Source: Alphaproteobacteria bacterium
Lineage (GTDB): Bacteria > Pseudomonadota > Alphaproteobacteria > Sphingomonadales > Rhodothalassiaceae
Reading direction: 5' to 3'
Length of the DNA: 29,088 bases
Assembly: GCA_003695555.1 (NCBI GenBank)
Contig: RFIU01000334.1
Span: 1-29,088, forward strand
Below the pieces are notes generated by a model. It made no database searches, was not told where the DNA came from, and was given only the letters and a program-made list of their open reading frames with translations. Both the position numbers and the translations under genes were made by a program. Below are positions 1,457 through 14,747 of the stretch, piece after piece (position 1 is the first letter of the stretch; the number at the start of each line of letters is the position of its first letter).

Positions 1457-2182
1457 ATGACGATGCAGCATACCCTCAAGGCCTATGATGAGGAACTCGA
1501 ACGTCTTCGCGCCCACATCAGCGAGATGGCAGGCCGTGCGGATGCCGAGCTGGCCGATGCGATCCGCGCCCTGCTCGAACGCGACAGCGCCCTCGCCGAA
1601 GACGTCATCGCACGCGACCGGCAGCTTGACGAGATGGAAGCCGAAGGCGAACGCATGGCGATCCGGATCATCGCACTGCGTTCGCCGGTGGCCGACGACC
1701 TGCGCGAGATCATGGCGATGACCAAGATCATCAATGCGCTGGAGCGGGTCGGGGATTACGCCAAAAACATTGCCAAGCGCGCGACCGTGCTGATCCATGC
1801 TTTGCCCGAGGCTCCATCCCAGCTCATCGGCCTGCTGACGAGCGAGGTGAGGCGAATGCTCTCGGACGTCATGGATGCCTTCGTCCGTCATGATGCCGAT
1901 GCGGCGATCGAGGTCTGGGAACGCGATGCACGGGTGGACGCGATCTATGACAGCCTGTTCCGCGAACTGCTGACCTACATGATGGAAAATCCGAAGCGGA
2001 TCACGCCGAGCACGCATCTCCTTTTCATCGCCAAGAATCTCGAGCGTGTCGGTGATCAGGCGACCAATATCGCCGAAGTCGTCTATTTCGCGATCCGTGG
2101 CGAACAGCTCCCCGACCACCGACCGAAGGGCGACGAGAGCGCCTATCTTCAGGATCCCGCCAGCGGCGAAAAGGCCGGGTGA
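1457..2182 (+). CDS. phoU: Phosphate signalling complex protein PhoU (241 aa)
   Basis: Two PhoU repeats with the motifs RDRQLDEME, LERVGDYAKNIA, DARVDAIY and NLERVGDQATNIAE; lies between pstS and phoB. Confidence 0.97.
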   Translation: MTMQHTLKAYDEELERLRAHISEMAGRADAELADAIRALLERDSALAEDVIARDRQLDEMEAEGERMAIRIIALRSPVADDLREIMAMTKIINALERVGDYAKNIAKRATVLIHALPEAPSQLIGLLTSEVRRMLSDVMDAFVRHDADAAIEVWERDARVDAIYDSLFRELLTYMMENPKRITPSTHLLFIAKNLERVGDQATNIAEVVYFAIRGEQLPDHRPKGDESAYLQDPASGEKAG

Positions 2183-2225
2183 AGCGCGTGCATCGGCCGG
2201 GGAGCAAGCCCAGGGCAGGAAAATC

Positions 2226-2957
2226 ATGGCAAGACAGCGTGACGATCGCCCGCTCGTCCTGTTGATAGAGGACGATCCGGCCATCGCCGAACTGGTGCGC
2301 TACAATCTGGAAAACGCCGGTTTCGCCATGGCGCTCGCCTTCGACGGCGAAGAAGGCATGCTTCAGGCATGCGAGCGTGCGCATGATCTCATCATCATCG
2401 ACTGGATGCTGCCGCACCTGTCCGGCATCGAGATCTGCCGGCGTCTGCGGCGACGCCCCGAAACCCGCAATACGCCGATCATCATGCTGACTGCGCGAGG
2501 CGAGGAAGCGGACCGGATCCGTGGTCTCGAAACCGGTGCCGACGACTATCTGACCAAGCCCTTCTCGCCGCGCGAACTGATCGCGCGCATACAGGCGGTG
2601 CTGCGCCGGGTCCGGCCTGCGCTAAGCGGCGAAGAGCTTGAATATGCCGGAATCAGACTCGACCCCGTGCGCCACCGTGTCGAACGCGATGGGCGGACGC
2701 TGAAAATGGGTCCGACAGAATACCGCCTTCTCCGCCACTTCATGGAACACCCGGGCCGCGTCTTCAGCCGCGAGCAGCTGCTCGATGCCGTCTGGGGCCA
2801 TGATGCCGATGTCGAGATCCGTACCGTCGATGTCCATATCCGCCGCTTGCGAAAGGCGCTTATCGCGCCTGGCGAAGCGGACCCGATCCGTACCGTGCGC
2901 GCCGCCGGCTATGCGCTGGATATGCCGAGCGACCCTTCTCTTCGAAAAAAAGCATGA
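2226..2957 (+). CDS. phoB: Phosphate regulon response regulator PhoB (243 aa)
   Basis: Receiver domain (LLIEDD, IIDWMLP, IMLTARGEE, DDYLTKPFS) plus OmpR-type winged helix (FSREQLLDAVWG, RTVDVHIRRLRK). AGGA RBS precedes ATG 2226. Confidence 0.96.
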   Translation: MARQRDDRPLVLLIEDDPAIAELVRYNLENAGFAMALAFDGEEGMLQACERAHDLIIIDWMLPHLSGIEICRRLRRRPETRNTPIIMLTARGEEADRIRGLETGADDYLTKPFSPRELIARIQAVLRRVRPALSGEELEYAGIRLDPVRHRVERDGRTLKMGPTEYRLLRHFMEHPGRVFSREQLLDAVWGHDADVEIRTVDVHIRRLRKALIAPGEADPIRTVRAAGYALDMPSDPSLRKKA

Positions 2958-2993
2958 ATAGCGGATCACACGGAAAACGTCGCCTTCCCGGGA

Positions 2994-3719
2994 TCACGAA
3001 AGAACGGCCAGAATCCGTTCCTGCCCATCGCAGCGCCAGCGCAGATGCCTTGCTCGCGCTTGCCGGACGACAGCCAGAGCCTGAGGCACCAGGATACCGG
3101 CCAGAGTCCTGTTCACAAGCGGAGGATCGCGCTCGCCGAAGACCTGCTGGATGAGAATTTCCCCCCGGGCATGTGCCTCGGCCCGGCGCAGACATGGATG
3201 CGTGCCTGCCCCCCAACAGCCATCGGCATCCCGCAGCAGGACGGAAAAGGCAGGTGGCGTGCGCCACCCGGCAGACCGCTTGATGATCCGCAGCGGATGG
3301 CGCCCGTCACCGGCGTTCGCCCGCCAGCGGGCGAGCATCAGCTTGTCCAGCAGGTCGTGACGTGCGCGGCAATCGGCCAAGCGCGCATCCGCCGCCGAAC
3401 CGACAGCGAGCGAGCGGTCGATATTCCGTAATCGAACGAGCAGCGGTCGGCGTGCTGCCCATCCAAGGCGCCGCACCAGCCATCGCTCGGCGCACTCGCG
3501 TATGGCGCCTTCGCACGCCGCGATCATGCGACCGGCGCACCCGTATCCCTTGGCCGGCGCATCGGAAGAGGAGCCGATCACCGACGCATGCGCTATCCAG
3601 TACGCCCGATCGCCGCCGACAACGGACCGGGCGCCGACAATGCGCGCCTCGATCCACGCCTCCTGCCCCCGGAAGGCGATCCGCGCCAGCCGCCGTTCGG
3701 GGCCGTGGAGCGGCCACAC
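2994..3719 (-). CDS. Compact, divergent YcaO-like protein (241 aa; GTG start uncertain)
   Basis: Three YcaO-like motifs in the correct order: GYGCAGRMIAACEGAIRECAER (aa 58-79), GSAADARLADCRARHDLLDKLMLARW (107-132) and GAGTHPCLRRAEAHARGE (170-187). RBS is weak and rare codons (ATA, CGA, GGA) occur. Confidence 0.62.
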   Translation of the reverse strand: MWPLHGPERRLARIAFRGQEAWIEARIVGARSVVGGDRAYWIAHASVIGSSSDAPAKGYGCAGRMIAACEGAIRECAERWLVRRLGWAARRPLLVRLRNIDRSLAVGSAADARLADCRARHDLLDKLMLARWRANAGDGRHPLRIIKRSAGWRTPPAFSVLLRDADGCWGAGTHPCLRRAEAHARGEILIQQVFGERDPPLVNRTLAGILVPQALAVVRQARARHLRWRCDGQERILAVLS

Positions 3720-3734
3720 CCTTGCGATCCGTCG

Positions 3735-4496
3735 CTATTTGAGTGCAGCCGCGAGATCCTCGCCACGCACCTCTCGCCCGCCGACTGAGCGGAATGCCAG
3801 CGCGTTGTGATGCGCCCACTGCGTCTGCCGCGTATCAATCGCCAGCCACAGCCGCGACGAATTCAGGCAGAAAGGCATCAGCGGCGAATCCGCTTCGCGA
3901 ATCTGCAGCGCCAGCGGCGTCTTCGCATCTCCACCGGCCACGCCGCGCTCCTCAAGGCGGCAGGCCAGCGCGGCAAGTTCGTCAAGATCGCGCTGATGCA
4001 GACGCAAGATGCCGGCGTCCCCCTCTTCGATCATGGCACGCCGGTTTTCCTCCATCCAAGAGGAGTCGCATGGCAGGAATGCGTCCGTCTCTCGTGCTCG
4101 CACGCCCTCCTCGCTTTCCAGAAACGCACGATAGCCTTCCGCGCGTTCGCGAAGATGGTCGTCCCGGCACAAGGGCGACCGTTCGTCGGTGCGCATCACA
4201 TCGAGCGACGCGCGCGCACGATCAAGTGCCGAGCGATAGCTTCGCAGGGCGTCCTCGATCCGGGAAACCAGCCGCGCGCACAGCACCGGCTCATCCTTCA
4301 ACGCTACCTCGCCGAGCAGCACATCCTCGATCACCTCGTTGAAGAGCAGGAAGTGCCGGTGTGCCGCGAACAGGTCTCGGCTGAAGAGCAGAAGCGCGAA
4401 ATGATGAAAGTCGTCATCGACGACAGTTGGCTCGCCGGAACGCGCAAATGCTCCGATCCGCCTGCCATTGCTTTTGTCACAATTTATGCCGCCCAT
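3735..4496 (-). CDS. Hypothetical protein (253 aa), His/Glu/Asp-rich, probably helical and soluble
   Basis: Strong RBS (AAAGGGAGAGG) before ATG 4496, high GC at third codon positions and natural amino-acid composition. I recognised no family. Confidence 0.75.
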   Translation of the reverse strand: MGGINCDKSNGRRIGAFARSGEPTVVDDDFHHFALLLFSRDLFAAHRHFLLFNEVIEDVLLGEVALKDEPVLCARLVSRIEDALRSYRSALDRARASLDVMRTDERSPLCRDDHLRERAEGYRAFLESEEGVRARETDAFLPCDSSWMEENRRAMIEEGDAGILRLHQRDLDELAALACRLEERGVAGGDAKTPLALQIREADSPLMPFCLNSSRLWLAIDTRQTQWAHHNALAFRSVGGREVRGEDLAAALK

Positions 4497-4693
4497 GATC
4501 CTCTCCCTTTGCCGGCCGCTTGCCTGCGAGGCGGGATCCCGCCCGCAAACGTGTCCGGTCGCTGGTGTTTCCACCTGATGAAAGGTGATGCCGCAGCCGG
4601 CACACCTTCACGCAATGTGCCTTCGACACCTCGCGAATGACGGGTACCGCATCTGCCTGTCCATGATCTGACGAGACGGCACCCGTTTTATGG

Positions 4694-4718
4694 AACGCCC
4701 GTTTTGGTGGATTGTTCC
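4694..4718 (-). promoter_or_regulatory. EcfG/sigmaT (general stress response ECF sigma) type promoter motif
   Basis: Minus strand GGAAC (4718-4714), a 16-nt spacer and CGTT (4697-4694) match the alphaproteobacterial GGAAC-N16-CGTT consensus exactly. It lies in an AT-rich intergenic patch and points at 4496. Confidence 0.6.
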
Positions 4719-4740
4719 AATGTTTATTCTTTCTAACATT
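4719..4740. promoter_or_regulatory. Inverted repeat AATGTT-N10-AACATT abutting the putative -35 element; possible transcription-factor site
   Basis: Perfect 6-bp inverted arms in an AT-rich patch of a roughly 65% GC genome. Confidence 0.35.
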
Positions 4741-4856
4741 AGACATCCAAGGACGATAGAAAGCCGTGGTTGCGGGCTGACGAGATAATCCGACCGGCAG
4801 GCCATATTCCCGGCTTCGCGTCAGGGGGGAACAAGCGCCGGTGTCGTGTCAGCCGG

Positions 4857-5864
4857 TCATGATGTCGGGAAAAAAACACCTTGCCATGCCAGCGCCAGGG
4901 CTGGTCCGAGGGCGGCTGCGATGAGATAGCGCGCTATTGCAGGCCACGGGAGGCTCCGCAAAGAACCGGCAGGCGGCAATGGAATCGGACTTGCGGATCT
5001 GTCCTTTCGGCTTCGCCGCTCCGTCCAGGGGATGGCGAGCGCAAAGCTCAAGCCCAGGGTGATGAGGAAGAAGATTTCCCCATAAAGACGGTGATCGATG
5101 GCGTTCGCCCGCGCCGCACCGATCGCGGCGGCGAGCGCGACGATGCCGGCAGCGCGAAGCGCATTGGCCAGGACCGGCACGATGATGAAAACGGCCGTGA
5201 CCGCCATTCGTCTGACCGGCCGCCTGGCAGCGACATGTGCGAACAGCAGGCCGACGGCAAGGGATGCGAAGAGATAGCGAATGCCCGAACAGGCCGCTTC
5301 GATCGAGAAGCGGGCAAGTCCCTGGGGTGTCATCAGCTCGATCACGAATCGGTCCCTGAGATGGGCTATTTCCATCAGATCGAGCAGCCCCACCGCAAGA
5401 TCAGCGGTTAATCGCTGCAGGGGTGCGATCAGCGACAAGCCGGCCGGCACGGCAAGCAGCAGATAGAAGAGCGGGAAACGCATTCGCCATGCCATCGGCC
5501 AGCCGACCATCGCCGGCACCGCCCCTGCGAGCAGCAGGATGGCAGCGAGGTGCATTCCGATGTCGATATCGGCAAGCCAGGCCGCAAACCACCCCCAGGA
5601 AACGACCGCCGCCGGCAGCCAGCCGAGGGGCCCGATGACCGGGGCGGCACCCGGCAGATGGCGAAGGCGGTGAAGGATCATTGCAATCGCGACCAGAAGG
5701 ACCACGGGGCCATGATGAAAGATGACATTGCCGCTCCATACCCGCCAGAGGTCGCGCCATGTCGGCAAAGTGATCAGCACGAGCGCCAGCCAGACGAGGA
5801 TGACAGCATAAAGCGGCGCCAGGTCAGGCAGCCCAGGTCGGCGGCCGTTCGGTGAAGCGATCAT
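4857..5864 (-). CDS. xrtA: Exosortase (XrtA/EpsH family) without a fused EpsI domain (335 aa)
   Basis: About 8 hydrophobic segments, with the catalytic Cys (IEAACSGIRYL), Arg (NALR) and His (AIDHRLYG) all present. ATGA overlap with the upstream GT gene. Context is exosortase-A type. Confidence 0.85.
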   Translation of the reverse strand: MIASPNGRRPGLPDLAPLYAVILVWLALVLITLPTWRDLWRVWSGNVIFHHGPVVLLVAIAMILHRLRHLPGAAPVIGPLGWLPAAVVSWGWFAAWLADIDIGMHLAAILLLAGAVPAMVGWPMAWRMRFPLFYLLLAVPAGLSLIAPLQRLTADLAVGLLDLMEIAHLRDRFVIELMTPQGLARFSIEAACSGIRYLFASLAVGLLFAHVAARRPVRRMAVTAVFIIVPVLANALRAAGIVALAAAIGAARANAIDHRLYGEIFFLITLGLSFALAIPWTERRSRKDRSASPIPLPPAGSLRSLPWPAIARYLIAAALGPALALAWQGVFFPTS

Positions 5865-7105
5865 ATCCGCCTGCCTTCCCGGTCACCGGCGAAAGCCGTC
5901 TCGATAATCTCGAGCAACCGATTCCCGGCGGCGTCCCAGCCGTAACGCTCCTTCACCCGGGCCCGGGCCCGCTCACCCATCCGTTTGCCTTTTTCTGGGG
6001 ATTCGAGAAGCCCGCGGATCGTGGCGATCCATTCGTCCGCAGACCGGGCGCAAAGGAGATCTTCGCCCGGCCGGGCATCGATGCCTTCCAGCGCCGCCGG
6101 ACTCGCCACCACGGGGCGCGCCATCGCCATCGCCTCGAGCAGCTTGTTCTGCACACCGCGAGCAATTCGCAAGGGGGCAATGGCAATGTCTGCGCGCGCC
6201 AGCCAAGGGCGGATATCTGCCACCCGGCCGGTGACGATGATCCCCGCACGACACGCCAGACGGCGCACGGTACGTGTCGGTTCCGCGCCGACGATGGCGA
6301 AACGCAGACCGGGACAGACGGCGTGCAGATCGGGCCATGGGTGATCGACGAACCAGCGCACCGCATCGATATTGGGGGGATAATCCATGCGGCCGGTGAA
6401 AACGATGAGCGGCCCGTCGCCCACCGCCACCGGACGAACCACCGCGGGGTCAAGGCAATCGGCATCGACGCCATTCTCGACCACCTTTACGCGTCCTGCC
6501 GGCAGATCCGGATTGAGCGCCCGGAAGCGTTCGGCTTCCGCCTCGCTGACGAAGAGCGCGGCTTGCGCCGCACGCGCGGCCACCCCCTCGAAGACGGCAA
6601 GACGACGTCCTTCGCATGCATGCAGTAAAGCCAGCGCAGACAGACGACGATGCGCGGCATAGTCGCGCCATTTGAGCGAATCGACATCGACGAAATCGGT
6701 GACGAAGGGCAATGCCCGGGCAGGTGCTCCGACCGACGCGAAGGTCGGATACTGCGCCATCGGACCCGAAAAGACGTAGGCCCCGTCGATCCCGCGATCC
6801 AGGGCTTCGGCAAGGAAGCGGCGCATCCCGCGATGGCGAAACCAGGCGATGCTCAAACTGCCGCCGCTTGCCAGCGCAGACGCGCCTCGCAGCAGCGCCG
6901 GCAGGCGTTTCAGCGGGATCGCGGCATGGGCGCGTGCAAGGGGGGCAATGACACTTTCCGCGGCCCTGTCCGCCGGATCATCGACGAACCAGCCGACATC
7001 GAGTTCATGGCGCGACGCGAGCGCACGAAGAAGATGCCAGGCGCGCAGCTTGTCGCCCTTGTCGGGGGGCCAGGGTGTGCGATGAAAGAGGCAGACAATC
7101 CGCAT
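5861..7105 (-). CDS. GT4 glycosyltransferase, PEP-CTERM/exosortase A system-associated (TIGR03087-like, 414 aa)
   Basis: N-terminal HRTPWPPDKGDKLR, plus DFVDVDSLKW, FTGRMDYPPN and GVQNKLLEAMA. Alternative start at 7120. Confidence 0.9.
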   Translation of the reverse strand: MRIVCLFHRTPWPPDKGDKLRAWHLLRALASRHELDVGWFVDDPADRAAESVIAPLARAHAAIPLKRLPALLRGASALASGGSLSIAWFRHRGMRRFLAEALDRGIDGAYVFSGPMAQYPTFASVGAPARALPFVTDFVDVDSLKWRDYAAHRRLSALALLHACEGRRLAVFEGVAARAAQAALFVSEAEAERFRALNPDLPAGRVKVVENGVDADCLDPAVVRPVAVGDGPLIVFTGRMDYPPNIDAVRWFVDHPWPDLHAVCPGLRFAIVGAEPTRTVRRLACRAGIIVTGRVADIRPWLARADIAIAPLRIARGVQNKLLEAMAMARPVVASPAALEGIDARPGEDLLCARSADEWIATIRGLLESPEKGKRMGERARARVKERYGWDAAGNRLLEIIETAFAGDREGRRI

Positions 7106-7193
7106 GGCCGGTCTTCGCATTCATTCACATCATCGCGCGGCCGCAGCCCTTGGGGCAAACAACGCTGACATCTGCTTGCCATGCCCGCCAGCC

Positions 7194-8255
7194 CTAGCCA
7201 AGTCCACGCACCAGCAGCGGCCCCAGTTGATTGGCGATCGCGAAGGGTAGTCGCTGCCAAACGGCGATGAACAGGCGATAGCGCGGGTTGTCGGGCGAAT
7301 GCGCCGGCAGAGCGCGACCCTTCACCAGAAGATACTCATATGTCAGCGGCGTCGGCTCGAAGCCCCAGAGAGTCTTGTAGTGAAAGGCGCCGCTGCCGAC
7401 CCGCGAGCGACCGAAATCGAAGCGCCGGAAACCGCGGCGACGGGCTTCTTCCATCAGCGCCCAGTACATGAAATCATGAGCATGCAGCGAGCGGGCCTGC
7501 GGGTGGGTACCGGCATAATAGGGCAGCACGTTATCGCCGTGATAATAGCTCATGACCGCACTGACCGGCACGCCTTCCGCCGTCGAGACGACGAGAATGT
7601 CCACATCCTCCCCGAAGGCGTCGAGAATCTCGACAAACCAGCGGCGGGGAAAGGCGGGCGTGCCGTGGTGGTGAAGATTGCGACGATAGAGCGTGAGAAA
7701 GGGCTCGATTTCGCGGGTCATCCGCCATTGAAGGCCATTGGACAGCCCTTTACGCACGCTCGCGCGGCGCTTGCGCGGGATCGCCTTCAGCAGCGCATCC
7801 GGATCAGCAGGAATGTCCCGGATGAAGATCGCATGACGATCCGGTATCACCTGCATGTCGGGGTGTTCAGGGCGCAGTCCCCGGTATTCGAGCCAGTCCA
7901 CCGCGCGCGAACGGGCCTCTTCGGCGGCACGGGCATGGAGAGCGTTTCCGGCCGCATCATCGGCGGCCAGCAGACCGCCGAGCGGTTGAAAGGGCAGACT
8001 GGCGAGCCGATTGCCAAACAATCGTGAACGGACATCTACCAGCGGCAGAACCGCGCGAATGCCCCGCTTCCCGTCCTCGGCCAGCAGATAGGGAGCGGCA
8101 TGGCCGAAACCGCGCTCCATTACCCGCCGCCACTCAGCCCGATGGAAGAAACTGCCGCTCGCGTGCTGCTTGACGAAAGCGTTCCATGCGGGAATATCCG
8201 CCGACGTCATTTCGCGCAGCCGAAGCTGACCCGGCTTTACCTCACCAGCCGTCAT
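7194..8255 (-). CDS. FemAB-related protein, PEP-CTERM system-associated (TIGR03019-like, 353 aa)
   Basis: Motifs FFHRAEW, LASLPF, RKRRASVRKG, PYYAG and FDFGRSRVGSGAFHYKTLWGFEP; GNAT/FemAB-like; fits the locus context. Confidence 0.9.
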   Translation of the reverse strand: MTAGEVKPGQLRLREMTSADIPAWNAFVKQHASGSFFHRAEWRRVMERGFGHAAPYLLAEDGKRGIRAVLPLVDVRSRLFGNRLASLPFQPLGGLLAADDAAGNALHARAAEEARSRAVDWLEYRGLRPEHPDMQVIPDRHAIFIRDIPADPDALLKAIPRKRRASVRKGLSNGLQWRMTREIEPFLTLYRRNLHHHGTPAFPRRWFVEILDAFGEDVDILVVSTAEGVPVSAVMSYYHGDNVLPYYAGTHPQARSLHAHDFMYWALMEEARRRGFRRFDFGRSRVGSGAFHYKTLWGFEPTPLTYEYLLVKGRALPAHSPDNPRYRLFIAVWQRLPFAIANQLGPLLVRGLG

Positions 8256-9228
8256 CTTCGCGCCCTTTATTGCGGATTGCGCAAGATTCCAGCCACTCGT
8301 CCATCCGCCCCCAAGGAAAATCGCCGATGAGGCGGCGCACCCGAGCCGCCATGCGCGAAAGATTGAGCCGATGACGCAATCGTGATTTCAGGTCCGCTCC
8401 TTCGATCCCGGGTTGATCGGGGTCGAACTCCCATGGGTGGCAATAGAACAGGAAGGGACGGCGTGCTGCCACCAGCCGTCGATAGCCGGCGCGGTAGAGC
8501 CGGTAGGGAGCGAGCCGGAAATAGCCGCCGCCGGCCCAGGGCAGACGATGCCCGAAGACCTCCAGGGTCGTGATAGGAAATTCCCGCAGCCGGCCATCGG
8601 CGAGAGGACGATACGGCCAGCGTGGCGCGCCGGGCATGCCATAGTGGTCGGTGCGACCGGGAAAGATGCTCGAGGAATAGGCGAACCCCTCTTCTTCAAG
8701 AACCGCGTGCGCCCATGGCGTCCGTCGGTCGAAGGAAAAGCTGGGCGCACGATAGCCCTGCACGCGCTCACCTGTCGCATCCTCGATAGCACGGCGAGCA
8801 CGGCGCAGATCGGCGCGGAATTCCTCCGCATTCATCCGGAAGACCCGGCGATGGTCCCAGCCATGACAGGCGATCTCATGGCCGCTCTCGGCCAGCCGTC
8901 GGATCAGCGGCGCATGCCGTTCGGCGACCCAGCCGAGCACGAAGAAGGTGGCGCGCACCCCCGCCTCGTCCATCAGGTCCGTCACCACGGACAGCCCCGT
9001 AGCAAGCCGCGAGGGATAGCATTCCCAAGCGTCGCGCCTCACCACCCGCTCGAAGGCGCCGACCTGAAAATATTCCTCGACATCGACCGTAAAGGCGCCC
9101 CGGATCGGCGATCCGGCAAAGGGCGCCTTGACCGGGTCATCCTGCTTTGCCGGTTCGCCTTTGCGGTTCGGTGGGATAGTCTGGCGGGTCCGAATTTCCA
9201 ACCCCTTCGTTGCACCCGGCAAAGGCAC
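8242..9228 (-). CDS. Polysaccharide deacetylase, PEP-CTERM locus type (TIGR03006-like); start uncertain (GTG 9228 or TTG 9201)
   Basis: Motifs TVDVEEYFQV, TFFVLGWVAE, HEIACHGWDH, GYRAPSFS, GGGYFRL and HPWEFDPDQP. Confidence 0.9.
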   Translation of the reverse strand: MPLPGATKGLEIRTRQTIPPNRKGEPAKQDDPVKAPFAGSPIRGAFTVDVEEYFQVGAFERVVRRDAWECYPSRLATGLSVVTDLMDEAGVRATFFVLGWVAERHAPLIRRLAESGHEIACHGWDHRRVFRMNAEEFRADLRRARRAIEDATGERVQGYRAPSFSFDRRTPWAHAVLEEEGFAYSSSIFPGRTDHYGMPGAPRWPYRPLADGRLREFPITTLEVFGHRLPWAGGGYFRLAPYRLYRAGYRRLVAARRPFLFYCHPWEFDPDQPGIEGADLKSRLRHRLNLSRMAARVRRLIGDFPWGRMDEWLESCAIRNKGREDDGW

Positions 9229-9229
9229 G

Positions 9230-10402
9230 TCAGCCCGTCGTAGGTTCCCTGGCGGCCTCGCTTCCGGACTTGCCGGTCGCCCCTTCGTCCTCACCTGCCG
9301 CTGTCTCATCAGCCGCACCTTTGCCTGCCGTCTCGTCCGCTCGGGATTCGGGTCGCTCGGCGGACATCGCAGCCGCCTCTTCTTCGCGGCCCAACGCGAT
9401 CAGAAGAGCGCGCAAGGTTTCATCATGACGGCGGACATAGTGTTCCAGCACTGTGATCCGGCGGTCAAGATCGGCAAGAATTCCCTCTTCGCCAGGCGAT
9501 GCAGCTGGCGGTGGCGCCGATCCGTTTCCGACGGGACTGCGTTCGGCAAGCGGGCGTTGGCGCTCCATGCCGCTTGAAGACTGAAACACGTTATCGGCTT
9601 CGAGGTCCGCAATCACGTCTTCGACGACGGCGGCGTCGAATTCATGCAGTTCCTCCAGAGCGCCGAAGAGCAGAATTCGCGAACACAGGGCATTGACCCG
9701 ACGCGGAATGCCGCCGGTGTAGGAATAGATCCGCTCATACGCATCTTCCGTGAAGCGGGGATCCCCGTTCCATCCGACCAGCCCCAGGCGATGTTCGATG
9801 TAACCCTTGATTTCGCTGCGGCCGATCGGCTCGAGATGATGGGTGGCGATGACCCGTTGGCGAAGCTGTTCGAGGACCGGAGCCTGAAAGAGCCGCTCGC
9901 GGAACTCCGGCTGGCCGAGCAGAAAGCATTGCAGCAGTGGATGCCCCCCGATCTGGAAATTGGAAAGCATCCGCAGCTCCTCCAGCGCGCTGACCGGCAG
10001 GTTCTGGGCCTCGTCGATGATCAGCAGGACGCGCCGTCCTTCTTCATGTGTTTTCTTTAGAAATTTCTCCAACTCTCGCAGAAGGCGCGCCTTTTCCTTG
10101 TCCTCAGTCGCGATTTCGAACTCTTCGGCGATCGCATGAAGCAATTCGGCGGCATTGAGCTGGGTCGAGACGACCTGGGCGACGATGAATTCCTGTGGAT
10201 CGAGCTGCGAAAGCAGATGACCGACGAGCGTCGTCTTGCCGGTGCCGATCTCGCCGGTAATGATGATGAAACCCTCTTCCTGACTCAGGCCATAGGTCAG
10301 ATAGGCCATCGCCTTGTGATGGGTTCGGGCGTCGAAATAGAAACGTGAATCCGGCGTCAACTGAAAGGGGCGGCCGGTCAGACCATAGAATTTCTCGAAC
10401 AC
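9230..10402 (-). CDS. ExeA-like AAA secretion ATPase, PEP-CTERM locus subfamily (TIGR03015-like, 390 aa)
   Basis: N-terminal FYGLTGRPFQLTPD, Walker A GEIGTGKTT, Walker B LLIIDEAQNL, GQPEFR and GGIPRRVN; low-complexity C-terminal tail. Confidence 0.92.
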   Translation of the reverse strand: MFEKFYGLTGRPFQLTPDSRFYFDARTHHKAMAYLTYGLSQEEGFIIITGEIGTGKTTLVGHLLSQLDPQEFIVAQVVSTQLNAAELLHAIAEEFEIATEDKEKARLLRELEKFLKKTHEEGRRVLLIIDEAQNLPVSALEELRMLSNFQIGGHPLLQCFLLGQPEFRERLFQAPVLEQLRQRVIATHHLEPIGRSEIKGYIEHRLGLVGWNGDPRFTEDAYERIYSYTGGIPRRVNALCSRILLFGALEELHEFDAAVVEDVIADLEADNVFQSSSGMERQRPLAERSPVGNGSAPPPAASPGEEGILADLDRRITVLEHYVRRHDETLRALLIALGREEEAAAMSAERPESRADETAGKGAADETAAGEDEGATGKSGSEAAREPTTG

Positions 10403-10404
10403 TT

Positions 10405-11991
10405 CTAGAACCTCGCCCTTAAACCGATATACATTGCATTCTCGTTGAATGTTGCTTCTGGTAGGTTACTGAATCTTCTCGTGTGCGTATAGCGAAATTC
10501 TCCATTCAACAACCGTCCCAGCGCGAAACCATAAGTGATGGAACCGATGAAGTCGTTGTCGCGACGGGTTGAATTCTCGAATCGATCATGGCGAAAGACG
10601 CCTTCCACCCGCAGCCGGCTCGTTGGCGTCAGTTCATGCGCCCAAGACAGGTCGCCGCCGAATCCACGGGCGACACCGCCAGTCTCGAAAGTGCGGCGTT
10701 CGAAATAGCCGCGCGCCCGATAGGAATTGCGACGCCGCGCATAGTCGAGCGTCAGGGCTATGCGCCGTTGGCGGAAGTTCTGATCCGAAAAATCGAATTC
10801 GGGCGGCGCTACGACGGTCAGGTCGGGACCCAGGGGGAGCGGCGAGGTGGCGGATCCCGCCGGCGGGGCAAGAAAGGGGGCCGTCAAGCGCAGGGAATCC
10901 TGGATCAGCAGCTGTTGCGAGGTCGCGATGACATCATCATAGGTCGCCTCAATGCGCAAGCGAGGCAACTGATAGGCGAGACGCGCCTCACCCGTCGTCT
11001 GCCCCGGTCGTCGCCCGCCACGAGCGGCAAACTCGAGCTTTCGGCCACGGAAGCGAAAGCCGGCATCCCAGCGCAGCCCGTCGAGATCCATGCCGAGAAA
11101 GCGCGTATTGTCCGCATAGCTGGAAACGCTTCCTTCGACCCGGAAGGTACGGCTCAGCGCATAGCCAAGATCAAGCCCGGCCTGCCACGACTGAAAGGCA
11201 GGCAGTACCGGTGAAACGACGCCCGGCGGCAGCGGTGGATTGCTGCGCGCGGTGCGATCGAAACGGCCGAACAGTCGCCAGCTCAAACGGCGAAGACGAT
11301 CCTTGCTGCTCTCGATATCGAGCGAGGCATCGTGTGAACGGCTGTCAGAAAAGGGGACGGTCGGTTGACCGGTCGTCGCCTGCTTTCGACCGCTATCATT
11401 GAGAGTCACGCCGAAACGGTATCGGCCCTTGATGACGACCGGAACGGCGAGACGGAGGTTCAGGTCCGGGCCGGCCGTATAGCTCTGAATGGTCTGACGG
11501 CCAGGTGCCAGATTCGCCTTGTTTCCCGAAAACTTGCCCGCACGTGTGGTGAAGGATTCGCGCACCACGCCGTTCATCTCGAAGCTCAGTATCCTCGGGA
11601 TCGCCTGATAGCGCAGAATGCCGGCGCCATCATGCTGAAGATCGGTGTTGCCGTCGCGGGCGAAATAGAAGAGCTGGGCTTCGTAGCGGATGTTCGCCTG
11701 AAGCCGCGCGCCCGTTGCGGTCAGGGAAAGACCGGCGTCCGCTTCGGGCGCAAGATCGGCGACCCGGCCGCTGCTGGTCAGAAAGAGATTGTCGGTCGCA
11801 TTGATCCGCGCACCCAGCAACGGATCGATCCGAATCGGCCCGGCCAGCGAACGGCCGCCATCAGCCACGAAGGCAGGAAGACAGACGCTCATGATAAGAG
11901 CAAGGCGCTTTGCCCTGCCCACCCCGAATACGACGGAAGATGAAACGGAAAACGAATTGGGAGAATGCAGAGGACCCCTCAATCCTTTCAT
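10405..11991 (-). CDS. Outer-membrane beta-barrel protein, PEP-CTERM system-associated (TIGR03016-like, ~528 aa)
   Basis: TDNLFL near the N-terminus, amphipathic beta-strand pattern and C-terminal YIGLRARF beta-signal. GGAGG RBS before ATG 11991; alternative start 12024. Confidence 0.8.
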   Translation of the reverse strand: MKGLRGPLHSPNSFSVSSSVVFGVGRAKRLALIMSVCLPAFVADGGRSLAGPIRIDPLLGARINATDNLFLTSSGRVADLAPEADAGLSLTATGARLQANIRYEAQLFYFARDGNTDLQHDGAGILRYQAIPRILSFEMNGVVRESFTTRAGKFSGNKANLAPGRQTIQSYTAGPDLNLRLAVPVVIKGRYRFGVTLNDSGRKQATTGQPTVPFSDSRSHDASLDIESSKDRLRRLSWRLFGRFDRTARSNPPLPPGVVSPVLPAFQSWQAGLDLGYALSRTFRVEGSVSSYADNTRFLGMDLDGLRWDAGFRFRGRKLEFAARGGRRPGQTTGEARLAYQLPRLRIEATYDDVIATSQQLLIQDSLRLTAPFLAPPAGSATSPLPLGPDLTVVAPPEFDFSDQNFRQRRIALTLDYARRRNSYRARGYFERRTFETGGVARGFGGDLSWAHELTPTSRLRVEGVFRHDRFENSTRRDNDFIGSITYGFALGRLLNGEFRYTHTRRFSNLPEATFNENAMYIGLRARF

Positions 11992-12023
11992 TCCCGCCTC
12001 CGCCTTCCCGCCCCGCCGCAGCA

Positions 12024-13145
12024 TCAACGACCGTAAGCATACCCGTAATAGGCCCCGAAACGGCGATCGGGACCGAGGAAGCGAACCTTGTTGAGGATGA
12101 AGCCGATATGCTTGCAGCTTGCGATCATGTTGAGGGCTTCGCGGATCTGCTGCTCGGTGGTGCGTTCGGCCTCGACCACGAATGCCGCCTGACCGGTGTG
12201 CATGGAAAGCGCCGATGCGATGCTGCTGGCCAGCACCGGCGCGGAATCGAACAGCACGATACGGTCTGGATAACGCCGCGAGATCTCGGTCAGCAGATTG
12301 CCCATCCGTTCGCTGGTCAACAGTTCGGGCGTCAGATTGTGCTGACGACCGGCGGGCAGGACGGTGAGATTGCGGACATTCGTCCGGATCATGCAATCGG
12401 CCAGATCGATATCGGGATCGAGCACCGCATCCATCAGCCCCTTGCTGGCGGTAATGCCGAGCGTACGCAGGGCTTCGGGCTTGGGAAAGTCGGCATCGAT
12501 GAGCAGAACCCGCACGTCCTGCTCGAGAGCGATCGAGAGCGCCAGATTGATCGTGCAGAAGGTCTTGCCGTCGCCAGGACGGCAGGAGGTGACCAGGACC
12601 AGATTGCCGTTCGGGATGCGGTGTTTGCCCTTGGCGAATGCATTGAGCAGGATCGGCCGCTTGATGATGCGGAATTCCTCGCTCGTCGTTCCGGGTGCGG
12701 CGTCCGGGGTGATGAAGCCGAGGCGACGCAGACGATCGACGTCCAGTTCCTGATAGCGACTGCGCTTGGTCGCACCCTGGCGAGCAGCTGCCCGCACAGC
12801 GGCGGGACGAATGCCGGATGCCGGCTGCTCTTCGCCGGGCTTCTCCGTGCTTGCCACTTGATCGGCAGGATCAGCAGGCGCAGCTTGCCCCTTCTTCACC
12901 GCCTCGTCGGCGCGATGTTCCTCGTCGGCGTCCGATGCCTGTTGAAGACGAAGCTGTTCAGCAGCACGCTCGAGCAGGCGGCGACGACGTGCCCGACGCT
13001 CCTCCTCCCCGGCAGAAGCGTCATCGGCCGTACCGGCAGACTTGTCTTCATCGCGAGACGGCGCATCCTGGGCCTGTTTCTGCTTGAGCTGCATGGCGGC
13101 GCGCTCCAGCAGACTCCCGGGCCGGCGATCCTCGGCTTCTGCCAT
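12024..13145 (-). CDS. Exopolysaccharide tyrosine autokinase (Wzc C-terminal/CapB type, TIGR03018-like, 373 aa)
   Basis: SEEFRIIKRP, Walker A VTSCRPGDGKT, LLIDADF, VLFDSAP and a C-terminal Tyr cluster FGAYYGYAYGR. Confidence 0.93.
   Translation of the reverse strand: MAEAEDRRPGSLLERAAMQLKQKQAQDAPSRDEDKSAGTADDASAGEEERRARRRRLLERAAEQLRLQQASDADEEHRADEAVKKGQAAPADPADQVASTEKPGEEQPASGIRPAAVRAAARQGATKRSRYQELDVDRLRRLGFITPDAAPGTTSEEFRIIKRPILLNAFAKGKHRIPNGNLVLVTSCRPGDGKTFCTINLALSIALEQDVRVLLIDADFPKPEALRTLGITASKGLMDAVLDPDIDLADCMIRTNVRNLTVLPAGRQHNLTPELLTSERMGNLLTEISRRYPDRIVLFDSAPVLASSIASALSMHTGQAAFVVEAERTTEQQIREALNMIASCKHIGFILNKVRFLGPDRRFGAYYGYAYGR
12927..13112 (-). repeat. Two diverged copies of a ~17-aa motif in the kinase N-terminus
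   Basis: LLERAAMQLKQKQAQDA (aa 12-28) and LLERAAEQLRLQQASDA (aa 57-73). Confidence 0.7.
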
Positions 13146-13154
13146 CCCCCTCCC

Positions 13155-14747
13155 CTACAGCAGATTGCCGTTGACGACGGCAATTCCCATCAGACCGGCA
13201 TAGAAAATAAGCAGCAGCGCAAACATGCCGACAAAACCGAGAAACTCTAGCTTGCGCTGGCGCCGGTCGCGTTCGAGCACCACCATCGTGACGATGCCGA
13301 GCACCGGCAGACCGAACACCTCCACAAGACGATCAGAATTCATGAAGACGGGGCGAAGCTGACTGAGCAGGAAGGCCATTCCGATACCGCCGAAAAGACC
13401 GGCCGCGAGCACCAGGCTCAACAGTTTCGGGCGATTTGGACGCGACGGGCGAGTGGGCAGGGTCGGCGGATCGACCACCTCGAAGCCGATGTTCTTCGCG
13501 CTGGCCTCCAGATCCTGCGAGAGCGCCGCCCGCTCCCGCCGCTTGACCAGATCATTGTAGTTTTCGCGAAGGATCTCATAATCGCGATCGAGCCGCTTCA
13601 ACTGCGCCTCGAGCAGGGGAATCCTGCCGGCCTGCGCCTCGAGATCGTCAAGCTCCTTCTTCAGGGCATCGCGCTGTGAAGTCAGGGTGGCGACTTGCGT
13701 GTCCTTTTCCACGACCCGTATCTTGAGCTGCTGCCAGACCGGATTGGGGGTGAAGTTTCCTTCGGACGGCGGGGCATCCGGATTTTCCTTCATGGCCTCT
13801 TCGGCGCGCTTCTTCTCCGCCTCCATCTGTTCCTTCAGGGTTTCAAGCTGTCTTGCCACGAAGATCACGTCGGGATGCTGATCGGTGAAGCCGCGGATCT
13901 TCAACTCGTCGATGCGCTGCTCCAACTGTTCGATGCGAGACTGAAGGCGTGGATTGACCGAACCGCCCCCCTCGCCGGAAGCGGACAGCGGCAGATAGGC
14001 CGGCACATCCTTCAGCTGTCGCTTCAATTCGTCACGCGCCAGCTCCGCCTCGCGCAGCTCGCGCTCCTTCATCTTCAGCTCGTCCCGAAGCTTTTCCACC
14101 CGCGCCAGATAGGTTCCCTGCGAAGACAGCAGCCCCATGTTCTGCCGCCGGAACTCGGCGCGGCGACGCTCGGCCTCCTCGAGCTTCTTTTCGAGATCCT
14201 TGACCTTGGAACCGATGAAGGCCTGGGCGGCCTCGATATCCTCGCGCTTGAGACCGAGATGTGCTTCCTTGAAGATGTTGAGCACCTGCTCGACGACGTC
14301 GCGGGCGAGCGCCGCATTCTGGGCATCGGAAAGCTGCTTGAAGGATGCCTCATAGGAAAGCTGAAAGATGTTGTCGCCCTGGGTGACGATGCGGATCTTG
14401 CTGCGCAGGTCGGCGATCAGCGGTGAGAGATTGTCGCCGGCGCCGAGCATGATATCCATGTCGGTGCGACGGATGACCTTCTCGAGGTTGGGGGTACTGA
14501 CGATCGTGCGCCGCAAAAGCTCGAGCTGACGATAGATGTCCACATCCACCGTCATGCCCCGCATCAGCGGTCGCAGCAGAGAATCCGTATCGACATAGAT
14601 GCGGGCCTGGGAACGATAGGAATTCGGGATCATCGCGACGACGATCCAGCCGATCAGACACACCACATAAGCGGTGGCCAGCCCGTACCAGCGGCGACGC
14701 CAGAGGGCATAGAGGGTGATCAGAAGATTCTGATACAGCTCATGCAT
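13155..14747 (-). CDS. Polysaccharide chain-length determinant / co-polymerase (TIGR03007-like, 530 aa)
   Basis: N-terminal TM after WRRRW, YRSQARIYVDT and LRPLM, long coiled-coil periplasmic region, VVDPPTLP..PSRPNR and C-terminal TM segments. Confidence 0.93.
   Translation of the reverse strand: MHELYQNLLITLYALWRRRWYGLATAYVVCLIGWIVVAMIPNSYRSQARIYVDTDSLLRPLMRGMTVDVDIYRQLELLRRTIVSTPNLEKVIRRTDMDIMLGAGDNLSPLIADLRSKIRIVTQGDNIFQLSYEASFKQLSDAQNAALARDVVEQVLNIFKEAHLGLKREDIEAAQAFIGSKVKDLEKKLEEAERRRAEFRRQNMGLLSSQGTYLARVEKLRDELKMKERELREAELARDELKRQLKDVPAYLPLSASGEGGGSVNPRLQSRIEQLEQRIDELKIRGFTDQHPDVIFVARQLETLKEQMEAEKKRAEEAMKENPDAPPSEGNFTPNPVWQQLKIRVVEKDTQVATLTSQRDALKKELDDLEAQAGRIPLLEAQLKRLDRDYEILRENYNDLVKRRERAALSQDLEASAKNIGFEVVDPPTLPTRPSRPNRPKLLSLVLAAGLFGGIGMAFLLSQLRPVFMNSDRLVEVFGLPVLGIVTMVVLERDRRQRKLEFLGFVGMFALLLIFYAGLMGIAVVNGNLL

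Follow-up and report, generated by a model that had tools for sequence, protein, structure and literature searches.

A predicted minimal YcaO protein encoded with a conserved acidic partner in a rare, mobile two-gene cassette

YcaO proteins are responsible for thiazoline, oxazoline, amidine and thioamide groups found in antibiotics, in methyl-coenzyme M reductase and in the ribosome. To our knowledge, most members of the superfamily lack a known substrate. In the YcaO mechanism a nucleophile attacks a backbone amide carbonyl and ATP phosphorylates the oxyanion, after which loss of phosphate gives an azoline, an amidine or a thioamide; some YcaOs are known to act on folded proteins (McrA, uL16) (PMC13063428). 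Here we describe a gene at positions 2994–3719 of a 29,088-nucleotide (nt) stretch of DNA, hereafter the window, from an alphaproteobacterium of the Rhodothalassiaceae (assembly GCA_003695555.1, contig RFIU01000334.1). A first-pass annotation, made from the letters of the window without database searches, had taken the 241-amino-acid (aa) product for an unusually small YcaO-like enzyme. We hold with high confidence that it is a genuine minimal YcaO, encoded in a conserved two-gene cassette together with an acidic partner protein of 253 aa. Both genes and all their features lie on the minus strand.

Several described systems come close to this cassette. The archaeal YcaOs that thioamidate McrA and the Escherichia coli YcaO that acts on uL16 have no E1-like partner and act on folded proteins (PMC13063428), as is proposed here, and MJ1094 of M. 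jannaschii (6pe3/6peu), the M. kandleri YcaO (6ci7) and E. coli YcaO are among the best structural matches of the 241-aa protein. The McrA and uL16 enzymes are, however, 365–590 aa long and recognised by Pfam, while the protein described here is unrecognised; they form thioamides on essential substrates encoded elsewhere, whereas here a candidate Cys/Ser substrate is encoded next door. The cyclodehydratases of thiazole/oxazole-modified microcins (TOMMs), linear azol(in)e-containing peptides (LAPs) and cyanobactins (McbD in McbBCD, SagD, BalhD, LynD) have the same fold. They resemble the cassette further in that its candidate target residues are Cys and Ser, and in that a relative in Geobacillus lies with a SagB gene and exporters. 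Unlike them, the cassette has no E1-like or RiPP recognition element (RRE) protein (RiPP, a peptide made by the ribosome and modified after translation), no Pro-rich tail and no short leader-core precursor, and its YcaO domain is about one-third smaller. SagB of the TOMM type is absent at the window locus; it stands beside the Geobacillus relative, and in the present genome it is found unlinked, on another contig (C19). From the thioamide-forming YcaO–TfuA pair the cassette differs in having no adjacent TfuA.

In bottromycin the core lies right after the initiator Met, starts with Gly and has a Cys a few residues in, with a C-terminal follower of about 35 residues, and the stand-alone YcaO of that system has no E1-like partner. 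The likeness to the cassette is one of layout only: a proposed core after Met, Gly first, a nearby Cys and C-terminal recognition. A conserved 240-residue domain replaces the follower, and neither homology nor bottromycin tailoring enzymes were detected. The nearest language-model neighbours of the 241-aa protein are short YcaO clusters (~277–300 aa) of Bdellovibrionota and Verrucomicrobiota (score 0.91, 172 shared features), which are likewise reduced.

Since the window is GC-rich (63.5%) with numerous overlapping open reading frames (ORFs), the reality of the ORF at 2994–3719 was examined first. It begins with GTG, a start that agrees with the M-x-P-L N-terminus of homologues, and encodes a protein of isoelectric point (pI) 11.3 that is rich in Arg, Ala and Trp. 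Its GC minimum is at codon position 2, a pattern that fits its frame or the antisense. No plus-strand ORF spans 2994–3719; those found there are short (≤128 aa). Codon log-likelihood, from a model that had been trained on the genome, was weakly positive (0.06 per codon), a value given little weight because the model barely separates frame from antisense in a GC-rich genome. The decisive evidence is that the ORF has homologues in conserved synteny, a confident predicted fold and a signature of purifying selection. Compared over 147 codons with L010, a near-identical locus of another metagenome, it has a ratio of nonsynonymous to synonymous substitution rates (dN/dS) of 0.36. The ORF is thus a real gene under purifying selection, and it has the endpoints, the length and all three motif blocks given in the first-pass annotation.

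Homologues were hard to find by sequence. A word-indexed search of 5.8 billion proteins with the 241-aa protein retrieved only the protein itself, and family profiles added very few further members. The program phmmer returned only noise from the Protein Data Bank (PDB) with the same query (P0001); over 1.84 billion cluster representatives it returned two 222-aa homologues, P0009 (E 8e-12) and P0010 (E 2e-8). Further family members came from neighbourhood look-ups. These include longer sisters, likewise linked to a partner gene, and it is through them that the short family joins the superfamily at the level of sequence: hhalign aligned a profile of five short members with a profile of the partner-linked proteins of 345–358 aa over 170 columns (probability 81%, E 1.2e-5), and the partner-linked sisters of 345–366 aa exceed the PF02624 gathering score (27.6–39.9 bits; 87.6 bits for the Geobacillus member). 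A mixed profile of short and long members reaches canonical YcaOs (E 2.2e-5). The family profile placed its three blocks in register with the ATP-binding helices of MJ1094 among PDB sequences, at an insignificant E of 0.11.

AlphaFold2, given a 12-sequence alignment, modelled the 241-aa protein with a predicted local distance difference test (pLDDT) of 80.8 and a predicted template modelling score (pTM) of 0.80. When this model was aligned, independently of Foldseek, with 48,161 PDB chains, the first five ranks all went to YcaOs: MJ1094 (Z 11.3), M. kandleri (11.3), McbD (10.8), E. coli YcaO (10.3) and LynD (10.0). Each of these matches aligns about 195 of the 241 residues, across model positions 4–241. 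Next after the YcaO structures came single alpha/beta units resembling the double-stranded RNA-binding domain, with Z of 6.8 or less. Foldseek gave probabilities of 0.98–1.00 to the MJ1094 and M. kandleri chains, and its searches of PDB, AlphaFold DB and ESM Atlas were concordant with the YcaO fold. The exact 241-aa sequence is in ESM Atlas, where its single-sequence model (pTM 0.76) has a template modelling score (TM) of 0.66 to a YcaO cluster; YcaO clusters make up 99 of its 100 nearest feature neighbours, and most of them are short (280–300 aa). The models thus give the protein a YcaO fold with the three-subdomain core, and this fold, the profile link and the conserved acidic motif residues bear out the minimal YcaO of the first-pass annotation.

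That annotation had also read three motif blocks between G58 and E187, and each of its residues was found at its number, G107-S108, P156 and H174 included. Motif 1 (residues 58–79, positions 3483–3548; GYG...A68...A72..E75..E78-R79) would form the first Mg/ATP helix and aligns with the canonical ExxER. Motif 2 (residues 103–126, positions 3342–3413; S-x-G-x-x-S...A115...A119..D122..D125-K126) would form the second helix and aligns with ExxER(D). Motif 3 (residues 167–191, positions 3147–3221; G..GAG.H...A180..H183-A184..E187...Q191) would form the third and aligns with the GxGxH...ExxQ of MJ1094 and canonical YcaOs. The nucleotide site of McbD consists of three long helices with Mg-coordinating Glu residues (PMC6395948); residue roles for E. 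coli YcaO were taken from alignment to conserved columns and from the same source. G58, A72, E75, R79, A119, G170 and E187 do not vary among nine aligned family members; when canonical YcaOs are aligned with the family as well, there is no variation at E75, A115 and E187 and very little at R79, G105, A180 and A184. All five acidic positions of the Mg/ATP helices (E75, E78, D122, D125 and E187) stay acidic. What the short proteins have lost, compared with their sisters of 345–366 aa, are the loops between motifs 1 and 2 and between motifs 2 and 3 and some 80–100 C-terminal residues. The core is retained, and roughly 100–130 residues of loops and C-terminal region are gone.

The partner gene (3735–4496) lies immediately upstream of the YcaO-like gene. 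It encodes a 253-aa acidic protein (pI 5.4) of no known family, with homologues of 241–266 aa (E 1e-44 to 7e-4); all 10 of the partners checked are acidic (pI 4.3–5.7). Neither Pfam, NCBIfam, PADLOC nor PDB gave a family match, no ThiF, E1, RRE or SagC signal was found in Pfam and NCBIfam at E≤1, and its profile gave only insignificant coiled-coil matches in PDB. ESM Atlas has a model of the partner of low quality (pTM 0.49), whose structural neighbours are for the most part helical and do not reach a TM of 0.5. Against L010 its dN/dS is 0.12. The most striking feature is the N-terminus, MGG(I/V)NCDxS(N/D)GR (codons 1–12, positions 4461–4496), which is near-invariant in the alignment and is our candidate modification site (Cys6, Ser9). 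Residues M1, G2, G3, N5, C6, D7 and S9 are the same in 12 of 12 proteins that otherwise share 20–44% identity; Ile or Val occupies position 4, and in most members N-G-R follows. In the window the initiator ATG is preceded by the Shine-Dalgarno sequence GGGAGAGG (4500–4508), identical in L010. A strong Shine-Dalgarno sequence stands just before the motif Met in all 16 loci checked, including one in which a gene caller had chosen an earlier start, so the motif is always the true N-terminus of the partner.

The two genes go together. Among 13 loci with sequence downstream of the partner, 12 have a partner-family gene directly followed on the same strand by a YcaO-like gene, in line with the suggestion of the first-pass annotation that the neighbouring 253-aa protein might be the substrate. 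The YcaO-like product has 222 aa in L004, L005, L006 and L007, 236 aa in L014 and 241 aa in the window and in L010, where the contig end cuts the copy; that of L015 is also cut by a contig end. The longer sisters have 358 aa (L008), 345 aa (L013 and L024) and 366 aa (L029). In L006 the 222-aa gene (8764–9432, GTG start) was uncalled in the source annotation. The exception to the pairing is L025, where a DDE transposase follows the partner, so that the cassette has either been disrupted or lost its enzyme; the partner homologue of this locus (L025:430–2167, P0017) is the most divergent one and keeps the N-terminus MGGINCD. Outside the count is P0011, two contigs of which end just past the partner gene; its longest contig, known as a gene table only, has a 140-aa gene 460 nt downstream of the partner.

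In the window a 15-nt spacer (3720–3734) separates the TAG of the partner (3735–3737) from the GTG of the YcaO-like gene; elsewhere the genes overlap or lie 4–12 nt apart, or 77 nt in one lineage. The two genes share a frame in the window, which is coincidental, since in L005 they are in different frames. A joined query of both ORFs was searched to test whether they are one 500-codon gene split by an amber TAG. This was rejected: partner homologues are stand-alone proteins of 241–266 aa with the same end point, and pairs that overlap or differ in frame also rule it out. Across 10 loci the similarity scores of partner and enzyme are correlated (Spearman rho 0.91, permutation p 2e-4), which shows co-inheritance and nothing more, given that some of the loci are related and so lack independence. 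Of the two proteins it is always the partner that is better conserved, with identities in the three closest pairs of 94%, 94% and 70% against 81%, 67% and 56% for the enzyme. The gene pair is obligate, and no conserved small precursor ORF common to independent loci was found within 1.5 kb of the cassettes.

The cassette with its upstream region (2958–4856, ~1.9 kb) occurs in the window and in L010 and is absent from same-genus genomes. In two of these (G002 and G003) a phoB-like gene is directly convergent with xrtA and leaves no space for a cassette, so 2958–4856 is an insertion. It lies just downstream of xrtA, convergent with phoU–phoB. GC content is 68–69% at 3000–4000, against 62–65% in the flanks. 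The insertion is shared only with L010, which is 92% identical in DNA across the partner gene, and the locus occurs in runs labelled as hot-spring and microbial-mat metagenomes. No direct repeats were found flanking the insertion, and no convincing terminator or sigma-70 promoter. A promoter-like pattern of the extracytoplasmic function (ECF) sigma type, GGAAC-N16-CGTT (4694–4718), is present 222 nt upstream of the partner, and both elements are kept in L010; no such motif was found upstream of the cassette in other loci. The pattern is also part of a palindrome, whose second half GTTCCA reads GTTTTA in L010 and which is therefore probably incidental. From this match of pattern, the cassette possibly has its own ECF-type promoter.

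Six-frame searches found other copies of the cassette in none of 40 relatives and none of 400 genomes of the phylum, and a search of viral contigs for the partner found none. Other copies of the cassette occupy islands with integrase, TraH and HU genes (L005, L006) or a ParA/RepA contig of a Roseobacter (L014), adjoin a type I restriction-modification system (P0011), or have ordinary chromosomal surroundings (L007, L024). In both islands a gene for an HU-like protein and one for a protein of ~212 aa of no known function lie directly upstream of the cassette (L005:1285–2266, L006:6978–8000). The cassette is rare and horizontally mobile.

Some relatives hint at the chemistry. In Geobacillus icigianus G1w1 (L029:92–6296, NZ_JPYA02000005.1) the partner gene is followed by genes for a 366-aa YcaO, a SagB-family dehydrogenase on the opposite strand (TIGR03605, 118.5 bits against a cut-off of 78.4), a major facilitator superfamily (MFS) exporter and an ABC-F protein. 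Among NCBIfam models this YcaO scores best with that of the SagD family, below its cut-off. SagB enzymes convert azolines to azoles by oxidation, so cyclodehydration of Cys, Ser or Thr is to be expected at least in the Geobacillus branch. The gene content suggests an azole-peptide cluster, not described before, in a named thermophilic isolate; the ABC-F protein could give self-protection against a ribosome-targeting product. In two loci of Hyphomicrobiales type (L013:4136–5665, L024:5319–6852) genes for a SnoaL-like protein and a predicted DUF2268 Zn-protease precede the pair, with a response regulator further upstream; these loci may be an extended system with a processing protease. The first-pass annotation had seen no E1-like protein, TfuA, SagB, exporter or other RiPP gene near the YcaO-like gene. 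This holds at the window locus and fails in the Geobacillus relative, with its SagB, MFS and ABC-F genes. TfuA (PF07812) is absent from the partner and from the entire 89%-complete genome.

The present genome also has a conventional azole-type locus, on contig C19 (409–3037, minus strand), where a gene for a canonical YcaO (PF02624, E 3e-104) adjoins one for a SagB-family dehydrogenase (159 bits). It is unlinked to the cassette and is also found in same-genus genomes (YcaO frame 820–834 aa). When the entire genome was searched in six frames with PF02624 at E≤10, this canonical YcaO was the sole match.

We propose that the cassette encodes a minimal amide-activating YcaO that modifies the N-terminus of its partner, a reading of which we are slightly less than half persuaded and in which we infer the catalysis, the chemistry and the substrate. 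The two proteins would be translated together from a self-contained mobile cassette between phoB and the end of the xrtA operon. By analogy with other YcaOs, ATP/Mg would be bound through E75, E78, D122, D125 and E187, and a backbone amide oxygen would be phosphorylated after nucleophilic attack. The target would most likely be the partner's own N-terminus, G2-G-(I/V)-N-C6-D-x-S9, where an azoline would arise by cyclodehydration of Cys6, through attack on the carbonyl of Asn5, and perhaps also of Ser9. A second option is an amidine formed with the free N-terminal amine of Gly2, which would also be allowed because the motif is fixed at a free N-terminus. The partner would then be a large folded carrier of an N-terminal core, with its 240-residue body giving recognition. 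We favour the partner as substrate because the pairing is obligate, no other candidate substrate was found, the Cys/Ser motif is invariant and one relative has SagB. That this amounts to a new kind of YcaO system, in which a conserved acidic protein of 250 residues presents an invariant GG(I/V)NCDxS to a minimal, partner-specific YcaO, we put forward more tentatively.

A number of observations weigh against this account, either against the YcaO identity or against the proposed role. PF02624 and the NCBIfam YcaO models did not match the 241-aa protein even at E≤1, and Pfam was also silent at that threshold for the 222-aa homologues P0009 and P0010. The short family alone showed no significant hhalign match to canonical YcaOs. 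AlphaFold without an alignment gave a pLDDT of 43, and the alignment used for the better model contained Pfam-positive YcaOs, which may have biased it towards that fold; the concern is reduced because the ESM single-sequence model is independent. In motif 2, D122 and D125 replace the canonical Glu residues, K126 replaces Arg and the Asp of 'ERD' is gone. The first-pass annotation had noted the three substitutions; all of these differences are fixed in the five short members, which are 27–31% identical to the 241-aa protein, and so are a trait of the subfamily and not decay. There is no Pro-rich (PxPxP) tail: as the annotation had noticed, the protein ends without one, in ...RILAVLS, and the other short members end in ...R(F/Y)L(V/A)(M/I/V)L. 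The YcaO-like gene evolves faster than its neighbours, six of which have a dN/dS of 0.12–0.26 against L010. No dehydrogenase, protease or exporter accompanies the cassette in the window. We know of no characterised precedent for a 250-residue carrier with an N-terminal core, and the partner could be a helper protein instead of a substrate. On the identity itself, the structural and profile-profile evidence outweighs the missing Pfam match. The first-pass annotation would have given up its YcaO had neither a profile nor a structure matched; formally the Pfam match is missing, and the structural matches are there.

Chief among the rival readings is one that makes the partner a new accessory subunit, recruiting or activating the YcaO in the role of the E1-like/RRE 'C' protein or of TfuA; the true substrate, whether peptide, protein or small molecule, would then be encoded elsewhere. 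The partner is placed as C proteins are, with its gene directly upstream of that for the YcaO and the translation of the two coupled; its size is about right, and its being more conserved than the enzyme is what a structural subunit could show. The Geobacillus cluster, moreover, otherwise resembles a B/C/D-type azole synthetase with exporters, and its contig begins 91 nt upstream of the partner gene, so that a precursor gene could lie just off the contig. We nevertheless regard this role as less likely than that of substrate: the partner gave no ThiF/E1, RRE or TfuA signal at E≤1, its Atlas neighbours are mostly all-helical and not of the alpha/beta E1 type (within the limits of a pTM 0.49 model), no conserved small ORF was found within 1.5 kb at any independent locus, and a helper role leaves unexplained why the most conserved part is a Cys/Ser peptide at the extreme N-terminus. 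Less likely still is a conflict module, whether for anti-phage or anti-plasmid defence or of a toxin-antitoxin-like kind, in which the YcaO covalently alters a protein of the cell or of an invader and the partner senses or regulates. A compact two-gene unit with the patchy, horizontally transferred distribution given above (0/40 relatives, 0/400 genomes of the phylum) would suit such a module, as would its company of integrase/TraH islands, a ParA/RepA replicon, type I restriction-modification and, in L025, a transposase; a gene neighbouring the cassette in L005 has a weak Abi_alpha match. We think it improbable, since both proteins and eight relatives had no match in PADLOC-DB 2.0 at E≤1, the partner is absent from viral contigs, several copies sit in ordinary chromosomal contexts, the literature search gave no link between YcaO and defence, and the Geobacillus version looks biosynthetic.

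Two further alternatives concern the YcaO-like gene itself. It could encode a catalytically dead protein of YcaO fold, a binding-only remnant or a gene being lost, since it lacks about one-third of the canonical domain, its motif 2 is divergent and without the ERD Asp, there is no Pro-rich tail, Pfam does not recognise the protein and its dN/dS exceeds that of all neighbours. This too is less likely than the helper role, and we rate it a shade below the conflict module: the five acidic ligand positions are acidic and, at 27–31% identity, invariant in the short subfamily, the length of 222–241 aa is itself kept in at least six loci, and the gene has an intact frame under purifying selection. 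The 'decaying copy' that the first-pass annotation had offered as an alternative finds no support, on the same grounds of intact frame, invariant motifs and a dN/dS of 0.36. A chance or shadow ORF in GC-rich DNA, suggested by the Arg/Ala/Trp-rich product, the weak codon log-likelihood and word-based searches without close homologues, has next to no probability left. The homologues (E 8e-12 and 2e-8) in conserved synteny, the dN/dS below 1, the confident AlphaFold model with its structural matches and the lack of any competing ORF over the region effectively refute it.

The surroundings of the insertion are as follows. At 4857–14747 (minus strand) there is a complete exosortase-A (XrtA) exopolysaccharide operon, with genes in the order Wzz-like protein, tyrosine-kinase-like ATPase, beta-barrel porin, AAA ATPase, polysaccharide deacetylase with DUF3473, FemAB-like acyltransferase, glycosyltransferase and XrtA. 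XrtA has 335 aa in the window, against longer open frames of 381–536 aa in same-genus genomes. On the other side the longest ORF for the PhoB-like response regulator (2046–2957, plus strand) overlaps phoU by 137 nt; its alignment with relatives suggests a true start near residue 60, at about position 2223.

The YcaO superfamily, its chemistry and its protein-modifying members are already known. New are the reduced domain of 222–241 aa that curated profiles miss, the partner family, not described before, whose N-terminal motif is invariant, and the mobile two-gene organisation. In the literature, of which our coverage was incomplete, we found no description of short YcaOs or of the YcaO–partner pairing, and nothing relevant on YcaO with exosortase or with defence. 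Because standard profiles miss the family, genome-mining pipelines would overlook all of it.

At 222–241 aa, against ~330–400 aa for the canonical domain, these are the smallest YcaO-fold proteins for which we found evidence. The short family shows which parts of a YcaO would be dispensable, and may give protein engineers a compact scaffold. The gene next to it encodes a probable substrate or partner, so that function is directly testable as a two-gene unit. If the proposed modification is true, 222–241 aa would be the smallest size at which a YcaO domain works, and the product would be a protein capped at its N-terminus by an azoline or amidine; where a protease and an exporter are present, it would instead be a small released azole peptide. 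The version in Geobacillus icigianus G1w1, with its dehydrogenase, exporter and ABC-F protein, may yield an exported azole peptide.

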